Of a stretch of 64,000 nucleotides of DNA, positions 57,979-59,913 are shown piece after piece (the first letter of the stretch is position 1; each line of letters opens with the position of its first letter). The notes beneath the pieces are model-generated. The model searched no databases. It was not told the origin of the DNA and saw nothing but the letters and a program-made list of their open reading frames with translations. The DNA is from Vulcanimicrobiota bacterium. GTDB taxonomy: Bacteria > Vulcanimicrobiota > Xenobia > Xenobiales > JADMJV01. The DNA is taken from positions 2,342,210 through 2,406,209 of the forward strand of contig JBFWNU010000001.1 of assembly GCA_050250895.1 (NCBI GenBank), given 5' to 3'. Position numbers and translations under genes: made by a program.

Positions 57979-59405
57979 AGGAAGGCCAGCATGTCCATTT
58001 CGTAGGCATCGGCGGCATCGGGATGAGCGGTATCGCCCGTGTCTTGCTGGAAATGAACTGGAGAGTGTCCGGCTCTGACCTGCGTTCTTCTGGCATCACA
58101 GAAGGGCTGCGGGCCCTGGGGGCTACGATTTTTGAGGGCCACCGGGCCGAGAATGTGGCCGAGGCCGATGTGATCGTGCTTTCTTCGGCCATTCCCGCTT
58201 CCAACCCCGAACTGGTGGAAGCTCGTCGTCGCAATCTGCCGGTCTATGGCCGCAGTGAAATGCTGGGTTTCTTGATGCGCCAGCGGTTCGGCATCGCCGT
58301 GGCCGGGACCCACGGTAAGACCACCACGACCTCTATGGTGGCCCGTGTTCTCGAAGCGAGCAGTCTGCGCCCCACCGTCATCATCGGGGGCGAGGTCAAC
58401 GACATCGGTGGGAACGCAAAACTTGGCCTGGGCGAACACCTGGTGGCCGAAGCCGACGAGTCGGACGCATCCTTTCTTGACCTCGACCCGCGGGTAGCCG
58501 TCATCACGAATATCGATTCCGACGTCAATCTTTCGGCTCCGCCCTTCGCTTCGCTGAACTTCGACTACGATCTCACCATGAATAAGATCGAGGAAATGTT
58601 CGAGCATTTCATGGCCCGTGTCCCGGCCGACACCGGGAAGTTGATCCTCTGCTTTGACAATGAACGCGTGCGCAAGGTTTCGCAGCGGGTCGAGCGCGAG
58701 AAGATCAGCTACGCCCTCGACCACCCGGCGGACCTGACCTGCAAGGGCATCGAACTCAAGGGCTTCGGCTCGACCTGCACCGTGATCTACAAAGGCGAGA
58801 AGCTGGGTTTGCTACGACTGGGCGTACCCGGCCGGCACAACATCTCCAATGCCCTGGCGGCCATCGCCTGTGGTTTGTCCATCGGCCTGGAGCCGGCCGC
58901 CATCTTCGTCGCTCTGGAGAGGTTTGAAGGGGTGCAGCGCCGCTTTCAGATCCTGGGCGAGTTCGGGGGCGTGACCATCGTCGACGACTATGCCCACAAC
59001 CCGCAGAAGATTCAGGCGGCTCTGCACGCTGCCCGCTCGGCCAATCCTCACCGCGTGATCGGCGTCTTTCAGCCCCACCGCTATACTCGCACCAAGTTTC
59101 TGGCCCACGAGTTCGCCGTCTCTTTCGAAGATGCCGACGTGGTGCTGGTGACCGACATCTATTCGGCCGGCGAGGTGCCCATCGTCGGCGCTCGCGCCGA
59201 GAACGTGGTCGAACTCATTCGCCAACACGGTAAACCCGCTAAAGTGGTCTACACGCCTCACAAAGCCGATATGATTCGTTATCTGGTGGAGGAGTGCGAG
59301 CCGGGTGATGTGGTCGTGACCCTTGGCGCCGGTGACATCGGTGCCTGGGGCGCCAGCCTGGGCGACTTCCTGGGAAAGCCACCGGCCGACCGGGCGGCGA
59401 TGTAG
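57975..59405 (+). CDS. murC: UDP-N-acetylmuramate--L-alanine ligase
   Basis: Internal ATG after the GGGAGGA RBS gives [27 protein letters not shown]. A Mur ligase P-loop [10 protein letters not shown] follows. Confidence 0.9.
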   Translation: [476 protein letters not shown]

Positions 59406-59913
59406 AGTAGCTCTCGGCCTGCGGCCGACGAGGAGCGTCGGCTTCGCCGCCGGATTTCGACGCTGCGCGTCGACAGGGAGCGCCGACTTCGTCGTCGGGA
59501 GAAGGAGCCGTGCGCTTCGCGCGGAGATTTCGGCCTTCGGCCGACGAGGAGCGTCGGCTTCGCCGCCGGGATTTCGACGCTGCGCGTCGACAGGGAGCCC
59601 CGACTTCGTCGTCGGGAGAAGGAGCCGAGCGCTTCGCGCGGAGATTTCGGCCTTCGGCCGACAGGGAGAGCCGCTAGCGCCGCTAGAAATCTCTCTCGGA
59701 GGGAGCGGTAGCGACTGACGCTCCTTTCTCGGCCGCAGGCCGCTCCTTTTCCCGTGAGCGAAGCGAGCGCTCCTTTTCCCGGGCCGTTCCTTTCCCCGTG
59801 AGCGAAGCGAGCGCTCCTCTCTCGGCCGCAGGCCGCTCCTTTCCCCACGGGAAGGGAATTTTTTTCAAGTTCGCGAAGAATGGCTGACATGGCTGTTTCA
59901 AGGCCATGAAGAA
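59405..59913. repeat. Complex repeat-rich spacer between murC and ftsQ. A tandem repeat of about 116 bp occurs about 2.3 times at 59423-59680. It is followed by mirrored motifs in A-B...B-A order at 59727-59845 (A=CTCGGCCGCAGGCCGCTCCT, B=CCCGTGAGCGAAGCGAGCGCTCC).
   Basis: Read directly. Motif A is the reverse complement of CTCGGCCTGCGGCCGAG at 59411-59427. Confidence 0.75.

Follow-up and report, generated by a model that had tools for sequence, protein, structure and literature searches.

Short palindromic modules form a composite array between murC and ftsQ in a Vulcanimicrobiota genome

A 64-kb stretch of DNA from an uncultured Eremiobacterota (Vulcanimicrobiota) genome, hereafter the window, carries a non-coding composite array of short palindromic modules between the genes murC and ftsQ. 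The array is located in the 3' untranslated region of murC and ends in, and overlaps, a terminator-like hairpin followed by a run of seven T (T7). It probably belongs to a small dispersed family of palindromic repeats associated with terminators, akin to the REP/BIME or BOX/SPRITE elements; it probably expanded locally and would at most provide murC with a structured 3' end. All coordinates are window positions. The array starts 4 nt after the TAG stop codon of murC. The spacer that contains it covers 520 bp (59406-59925), because ftsQ starts at ATG 59926 rather than at GTG 59914: a 100% identical protein (P0121, 280 residues) was called from ATG 59926 in an independent assembly. The first-pass annotation of this DNA had named the two flanking genes correctly but had set the spacer at 59405-59913, so that its boundary with ftsQ has to be moved.

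Eight copies of a 45-nt module were detected within 59409-59841, five on the + strand and three on the - strand, using a covariance model (R1) built from seven copies (alignment A4). The module is composed of a hairpin A with a stem of 6-7 bp and a loop of 3 nt, a GGAG-type linker and a hairpin B. These hairpins are 11-17 nt long and every one of them falls inside the murC-ftsQ spacer, i.e. they are short imperfect palindromes in extragenic DNA. In the forward half, each of the five modules has two hairpins joined by a GGAG-type purine linker, and short GCGC-TTC-GCGC hairpin segments separate modules at 59499-59524 and 59616-59641. Two modules and one short hairpin make up a unit of 117 nt that is duplicated in tandem, the two units differing from each other at about five positions. 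Each unit comprises five short hairpins with G+C stems of 4-7 bp and T(T/G)C loops, between which the purine linkers are CGAGGAGCG, GATT, CAGGGAGC, GGGAGAAGGAGCC and GGAGATT. Tandem Repeats Finder (TRF) counts 2.1 copies and a truncated third unit (59642-59686) raises this number to about 2.4. The tandem array of about 2.3 copies proposed at first pass therefore stands, with a unit of 117 bp instead of 116 bp.

The second half of the array is inverted relative to the first. Its module copies score with R1 on the - strand only and, read on the + strand, consist of hairpins followed by CTCCTTT(T/C)CCC tracts; TRF reports them as a second repeat with a period of 44 nt (2.7 copies, 59719-59846). 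Positions 59415-59428 are 100% complementary both to 59729-59742 and to 59822-59835. The latter pair forms a terminal inverted repeat that reaches about 25 nt once the linker is included, and longer complementary arms of 17-37 nt (70-88%) connect the two halves. Hairpin A is nearly palindromic itself and its orientation is set by the flanking linker. On the + strand, GGAG occurs 13 times and CTCC never in 59432-59702 (the window background is 4.25 GGAG per kb), while from 59721 on CTCC occurs five times and GGAG never. Because a side with GGAG only gives way to a side with CTCC only, the element is a large imperfect palindrome with unequal arms and a center near 59711. These data bear out the mirror order A-B...B-A described earlier, in which A reverse-complements the opening sequence of the array.

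The array is real sequence. Logan short-read contigs from run SRR27751815 match the window at 100% over 50685-59451 and over 59720-64000, the second contig (L205) starting within the inverted half. The start of the array and its inverted half from 59720 (which leaves out only 16 nt at the beginning of the innermost inverted module) are confirmed in this manner; the tandem part (59452-59719) is the only portion that short reads left unresolved, which is usual for repeated sequence. Since assemblers are prone to errors in tandem repeats and the short-read contigs do break within this one, an artefact could be suspected. However, the independent short-read assembly is identical at both edges of the array and over its inverted half (from 59720), and the differences between the tandem units do not correspond to the pattern of an assembly duplication.

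A related module was identified at a second locus. L205 extends 1.4 kb beyond the window and ends inside module-related sequence. Its positions 5634-5674 (AAAAGGAGCGCTCGCTGCGCTCGAGGGAACAGGAGCGGCCT), 41 nt located about 5.4 kb downstream of the array, are 90% identical to the reverse complement of 59737-59777 (E value of 4e-10 in a comparison with the entire window), and 59782-59818 is matched at 84% identity. This match runs through hairpin B and the linker into the beginning of hairpin A, the elements following each other as in the array. Read on the - strand, the second copy is followed by the hairpin GAGCGC-AGCGA-GCGCTC and eight T (T8), which resembles a terminator; the next - strand gene (265 residues) follows at a distance of about 80 nt, and the site is located between two co-directional genes. 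The succession of array, terminator, short gap and co-directional gene is the same as at murC-ftsQ. Judging from this similarity, the module family has at least two loci.

Alternatively, the array could have arisen by a purely local and neutral slippage expansion of the murC terminator region, with neither mobility nor family, the downstream similarity being a convergent terminator-like sequence. The copies indeed show graded identities, of about 62% between modules s1s2 and s3s4, about 85% between the inverted copy and the forward A-B module and 96% between the 117-nt units. The pyrimidine linker equals the left arm of the terminator, no module copy was recovered elsewhere in the 64 kb and a 26-base module pattern had no match in the metagenome contigs, all of which suits a local event. 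Yet a 41-nt match at a second locus that combines such an identity with the same order of elements is hard to obtain by convergence, and a purely local origin is regarded as rather improbable. The graded identities also enter the reading as a dispersed family, where they suggest that the array grew stepwise by local duplication, probably through replication slippage and strand-switch (inverted) duplication.

Several observations weigh against this overall reading or limit it. The additional module copy is limited to one, of 41 nt, at the end of a contig. Inside the window, the next-best R1 match reaches 12.6 bits and the best blastn match an E value of 0.23, and the 11-mers shared between the array and the remainder of the sequence are at chance level; because no other module was found in 64 kb, the family would have to be low-copy or fast-diverging, unlike classic REPs. 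A scan of genome contigs with the pattern GGCCGA-N3-4-GGAGCG-N3-GCTTCGC (19 specified bases) returned at least 117 single chance matches in unrelated G+C-rich genomes; among the matches listed, no locus had more than one and none came from the source genome. There was no transposase domain among the subset of window open reading frames (ORFs) that were scanned, and no flanking direct repeat that could represent a target-site duplication is visible at the array. The number of 117-nt units is supported by the long contig alone. Finally, covariation among the eight modules amounts to a single compensatory pair (G-C to A-U), for which reason selection for structure is not claimed. The epimerase protein of the window, used as a query, led back to the same short contig and to no further one.

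Comparison with relatives indicates how the spacer originated. Three related loci, L001, L003 and L204, whose MurC proteins are 72%, 69% and 63% identical to that of the window, have murC-ftsQ spacers of 97, 90 and 88 bp, respectively, without the array. In L204, the order murG-murC-ftsQ-DUF881-DUF1290 is the same as in the window and no tandem repeat was found in 21 kb. Because ftsQ directly follows murC in all three, their direct adjacency is ancestral in the clade and neither murB nor ddl was ever located between them. The last 70 bp or so of the window spacer align to the L001 spacer, and L001 has a terminator-like hairpin followed by six T (T6) at the equivalent place. Considering the short spacers of the relatives and the position of the L001 terminator, the array is best described as an addition: about 410 bp (59409 to about 59836) appear to have been inserted in this lineage between the murC stop codon and a pre-existing terminator. 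The spacers of the relatives are too diverged from that of the window to define the exact empty site. In the loci of the relatives, the best R1 match to the module has 18.6 bits, all matches lie in coding sequence and blastn gave none; a search of metagenome contigs by MurC alignment recovered only relatives with at most 49% identity, too distant to inform on this clade.

In many bacteria, murB and/or ddl are located between murC and ftsQ. On this ground the spacer had been viewed as a possible scar of a lost murB/ddl segment. The spacers of 88-97 bp in the relatives indicate that nothing was lost, and no frame tested matches Pfam or any protein, so this proposal is refuted; that the array is either a remnant of murB/ddl coding sequence or the assembly artefact considered above is hardly credible. 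Four reading frames across the array gave no significant Pfam match, and none of four ORFs that were looked up exactly is recorded as a called protein. The 223-residue frame of the - strand had no homologue among 5.8 billion proteins and the 103-residue frame of the + strand no match among 1.84 billion representatives. Rfam gave nothing near threshold in gathering mode and chance-level matches only in E-value mode. BLAST against plasmids and phages yielded at most one insignificant match of 55 nt, and two pattern scans of viral contigs yielded none. The array is non-coding and does not belong to a known RNA family.

The structural potential of the region is high. The minimum free energy predicted for the RNA of 59400-59915 is -295.4 kcal/mol, against -243 +/- 7 kcal/mol for dinucleotide shuffles (n = 100; z = -7.25), none of which folded as well. 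Likewise, 59406-59860 folds at -279.7 kcal/mol, against -191 +/- 15 kcal/mol for 455-nt coding segments from the same window, and nowhere else in the 64 kb are perfect short hairpins as densely clustered as in the array region. The very high potential for secondary structure noticed at first pass is thus well founded. The minimum-free-energy structure joins the first unit to the inverted half by base pairing; when pairs are limited to 30 nt, the local fold is a row of hairpins (-180 kcal/mol). The predicted fold is 27 kcal/mol more stable for the sense than for the antisense RNA, which weakly suggests that the relevant strand may be that of the sense transcript.

The terminator-like site at the distal end of the array consists of a hairpin with a G+C-rich stem (59837-59857) followed by the T7 run. 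Its left arm (CTCCTTTCCCC) overlaps the linker of the last inverted module and is the same tract as the inverted-module linkers. Insulation of ftsQ from the mur genes by terminator-like hairpins is plausible from these predictions. Any such insulation comes from the terminator, which is also found in the closest relative, and not from the array; the L003 and L204 spacers contain no site passing the terminator scan. In a more elaborate scheme, which develops the attenuator put forward at first pass, the region would act as an attenuator or leader in which alternative pairings of the array decide whether the terminator forms, leading to a regulated uncoupling of ftsQ from the mur genes. The position of the hairpin and T7 directly upstream of ftsQ, the extreme structure of the region and the near complementarity between first-half linkers such as GGGAGAAGGAG and the left arm CTCCTTTCCCC are compatible with it. 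However, none of the three relatives with a conserved murC-ftsQ junction carries the array, and L001 has the terminator without it. The pairing probability of the terminator stem remains at 0.86-0.98 whatever the length of upstream array included, no competing antiterminator is conserved among the relatives, and the minimum-free-energy fold engages the purine linkers with three other pyrimidine linkers of the second half. No Rfam family matches, and a device specific to ftsQ would not be expected to have a related module at another, unrelated locus. The attenuator is therefore left unsupported and judged unlikely.

Two further functions can be envisaged for the array, at the level of DNA and RNA, respectively. 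The perfect palindromes of 15-17 bp, about 23 bp apart, could be bound, as an array of sites, by a nucleoid protein, gyrase, an IHF-like protein or a partition protein, as reported for BIMEs. TCGGCC-TTC-GGCCGA and TCGACGC-TGC-GCGTCGA are operator-like inverted repeats (6-3-6 and 7-3-7) in convergent arrays, but the palindromes differ in sequence and thus do not repeat one recognition site. Moreover, they lack conservation among the relatives and no DNA-binding gene is associated with them in the neighborhood, making this role very unlikely. At the RNA level, the forward half could be a decoy, i.e. a sponge similar to CsrB/RsmZ whose approximately 13 single-stranded GGAG motifs would titrate an RNA-binding protein or 30S subunits. 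The 13 GGAG in 270 nt represent ten times the background, occur in the sense strand only and are all placed by the local fold in unpaired linkers. Against this, no promoter-like site precedes the forward half and no terminator follows it, the CTCC linkers of the second half would mask the motifs on a read-through transcript, no CsrB/Rsm family of Rfam matches and the array is not conserved. The enrichment is equally well explained by GGAG being the complement of CTCC tracts that resemble the terminator arm. A decoy is consequently held to be highly improbable. No more probability is given to its extended version, in which the forward half would be released as a GGAG-rich RNA, for instance by RNase III, and would titrate a factor binding GGA or Shine-Dalgarno sequences, or the 30S subunit, linking mur output to the translation of division genes, with the related modules constituting an Eremiobacterota decoy regulon.

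The favored reading remains that of a palindromic repeat family, in which the array is not a switch but selfish or neutral DNA that would be tolerated just downstream of genes, by analogy with REP/BIME, BOX and SPRITE. Co-transcribed with murC, it is predicted to fold into a dense stack of hairpins or into one long imperfect stem between unit 1 and the inverted half, before the terminator. Its effect would be at most a structured 3' end of murC, serving as a barrier to exonucleases or as a substrate of RNase III, and some added insulation of ftsQ.

The closest analogues are the REP/BIME, BOX and SPRITE repeats; the array has no sequence similarity to them and its membership in any of these families is not established. 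REP/BIME elements are known to stabilize upstream mRNA as a 3' barrier and to bind some proteins. As in the REP/BIME (REPIN) of Enterobacteria and Pseudomonas, short imperfect palindromes are clustered between co-transcribed or co-directional genes, in both orientations, so that the clusters fold into larger structures. The differences are that REP/BIME alternate in orientation whereas the array has five consecutive + modules and then three consecutive - modules, and that the module has been seen at two loci versus hundreds for REP/BIME. Moreover, none of the modules begins with GTAG, the conserved 5' head of REPs, no RAYT gene (IS200/IS605-like Y1 transposase) was seen among the window ORFs that were scanned and the module carries two different hairpins and a GGAG linker. 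Among the three interpretations offered at first pass, the REP-like array comes closest, owing to the short palindromic modules and to the second copy downstream, with the reservation that their orientation does not alternate.

The BOX elements of Streptococcus pneumoniae (boxA-boxB(n)-boxC) are non-coding intergenic composites whose complementary ends pair in RNA and whose internal tandem module varies in number (PMC3049150). The array similarly is non-coding and intergenic and has mutually complementary ends and an internal tandem module. It differs from BOX in sequence, and in the fact that its terminal modules are the repeated unit itself; no target-site duplication was seen. The pneumococcal SPRITE repeats are dispersed stems with a U-rich tract, enriched just downstream of genes and possibly co-opted as terminators (PMC3049150). 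The inverted modules of the array likewise are hairpins followed by CTCCTTTT tracts, and the second-locus module with its T8 constitutes a canonical terminator-like site. A SPRITE is however a single unit with a duplex of about 18 bp, in contrast with a multi-module array whose forward half is devoid of T-tracts. Finally, the mycobacterial interspersed repetitive units (MIRUs) and other intergenic variable-number tandem repeats occur inside operons and between co-directional genes, with tandem repeats of 40-120 bp. MIRUs form no palindromic arrays, and their small ORFs overlap the stop and start codons of the neighboring genes. The tandem unit of the array, also between co-directional genes, has a length that is a multiple of three, but no coupling ORF is evident in it.

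Table 1. Features of the murC-ftsQ region and of the second locus.
Feature	Position	Strand	Evidence
murC (UDP-N-acetylmuramate--L-alanine ligase)	57975..59405	+	Pfam Mur_ligase, Mur_ligase_M, Mur_ligase_C
Forward half, five modules	59409-59453, 59454-59498, 59525-59569, 59571-59615, 59642-59686 (59409..59686)	+	R1, 49-62 bits; repeat family D1; alignment A4
Young 117-nt tandem duplication, 2.1 copies, 96%	59414..59662	+	TRF score 470; repeat families D2 and D6
Center of symmetry, apex hairpin GGGAGCG-GTAGCGACTGA-CGCTCC	59695..59727		Local fold; GGAG to CTCC linker switch at about 59710
Inverted half, three modules	59704-59748, 59752-59792, 59796-59841 (59704..59841)	-	R1, 39.2, 27.8 and 53.8 bits on the - strand; TRF 44-nt period
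Intrinsic-terminator-like hairpin TCCTTTCCC-CAC-GGGAAGGGA, then AATTTTTTT	59837..59866	+	Terminator scan: 9 pairs and T7
Remaining ancestral spacer	59867..59925	+	Two TTTCAAG-N-GAAGAA motifs, 59863-59880 and 59896-59913 (repeat family D5); aligns with the short L001 spacer (alignment A3)
ftsQ (POTRA_1)	59926..60768	+	Pfam POTRA_1; start ATG 59926
Second module copy and terminator-like site	L205 5626-5674, about 1.35-1.39 kb past the window end	-	90% identity to 59737-59777; hairpin and T8

The array is located near the distal end of a standard division and cell-wall cluster, whose order is mraW, ftsI, murE, murF, mraY, murD, ftsW, murG, murC, ftsQ (POTRA_1), DUF881 and DUF1290. The MurC protein is 100% identical to P0001 (476 residues, 'MAG: Vulcanimicrobiota bacterium'), which is encoded on a contig of 3.95 Mb; its next relatives, some of them labelled Xenobia or Eremiobacterota, are at most 72% identical. 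The TTTCAAG motif found twice between the terminator and the ftsQ start (59863-59913) recurs in the L001 (3805-3850) and L003 spacers. At the equivalent place, L204 (11480-11510) contains the perfect inverted repeat TTGAAT-AAC-ATTCAA and L001 contains TTGAAT-ATA-ATTCAG. These TTTCAAG/TTGAAT repeats may represent an operator or promoter of ftsQ that has been conserved. Downstream of ftsQ come the DUF881 and DUF1290 genes (60857-62034, also present in L001 and L204), as in the divIB-ylxW/ylxX-sbp region of Bacillus, and then a gene on the opposite strand; an exact look-up of the DUF1290 protein with the start used in the window found no record. Neither ftsA nor ftsZ is adjacent in this clade, and the neighborhood of murC or ftsQ is rearranged in L202, L203 and L206.

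Other spacers of the window are also rich in repeats. Another dispersed modular repeat, distinct from that of the array, is common to spacers 529-1514 and 23155-23970, its parts being colinear but inverted: 845-885 matches 23851-23811 (E value of 4e-9), 1027-1064 matches 23335-23297 and 23458-23420 (3e-5) and 929-956 matches 23579-23551 (2e-3). Each of the two spacers contains a young tandem duplication, of 62 nt in the former (2.4 copies, 1130-1279, 100% identical) and of 123 nt in the latter (2.1 copies, 23283-23536, 97%), where the tandem block is bracketed by a 29-nt inverted repeat (23188-23216 / 23566-23594). Spacers crowded with repeats, with recent duplications inside them, thus seem to be habitual in this genome. 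Membership of the array in the same family as these spacers was not accepted, its similarity to one of them (IG1) having an E value of only 0.035. The 9-mer CGCGGAGAT is present six times in the window versus 1.2 expected (862, 9531 on the - strand, 23177, 23586 on the - strand, 59520 and 59637), with five of the six copies in the three repeat-rich spacers. It was rejected as a motif shared by these three intergenic regions, since its excess is only suggestive and two copies are tandem ones.

Elsewhere in the window, a 19-nt unit (CCCCACTTCGCCCCACCA) is repeated 3.9 times with 75% matches at 45240-45313, in the spacer downstream of a PHP-domain gene of the - strand and upstream of the division cluster at its mraZ/mraW end. 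The stretch 8640-11090 has a lower G+C content at third codon positions (GC3) and small ORFs, one of which (9635-10153, - strand) codes for an Xre-type helix-turn-helix protein. A 57-nt direct repeat, 86% identical, brackets it (9546-9602 / 10660-10716). This stretch looks like a small inserted cassette, perhaps encoding a toxin-antitoxin-like pair.

Overall, the murC-ftsQ array is a fairly ordinary kind of bacterial repeat with no demonstrated function. It explains why short-read assemblies break between murC and ftsQ in this organism, and annotators should take the 520-bp gap neither for a lost gene nor for a riboswitch. A limited literature search found no account of such repeats in Eremiobacterota (Vulcanimicrobiota). 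The array offers a first glimpse of palindromic, terminator-hugging repeat families in this phylum, which has almost no cultured members. If the family proves to be numerous, the variable number of its tandem units could make it a marker for strain typing, and it could offer a natural experiment on the way in which operon insulation depends on repeat arrays at gene ends.

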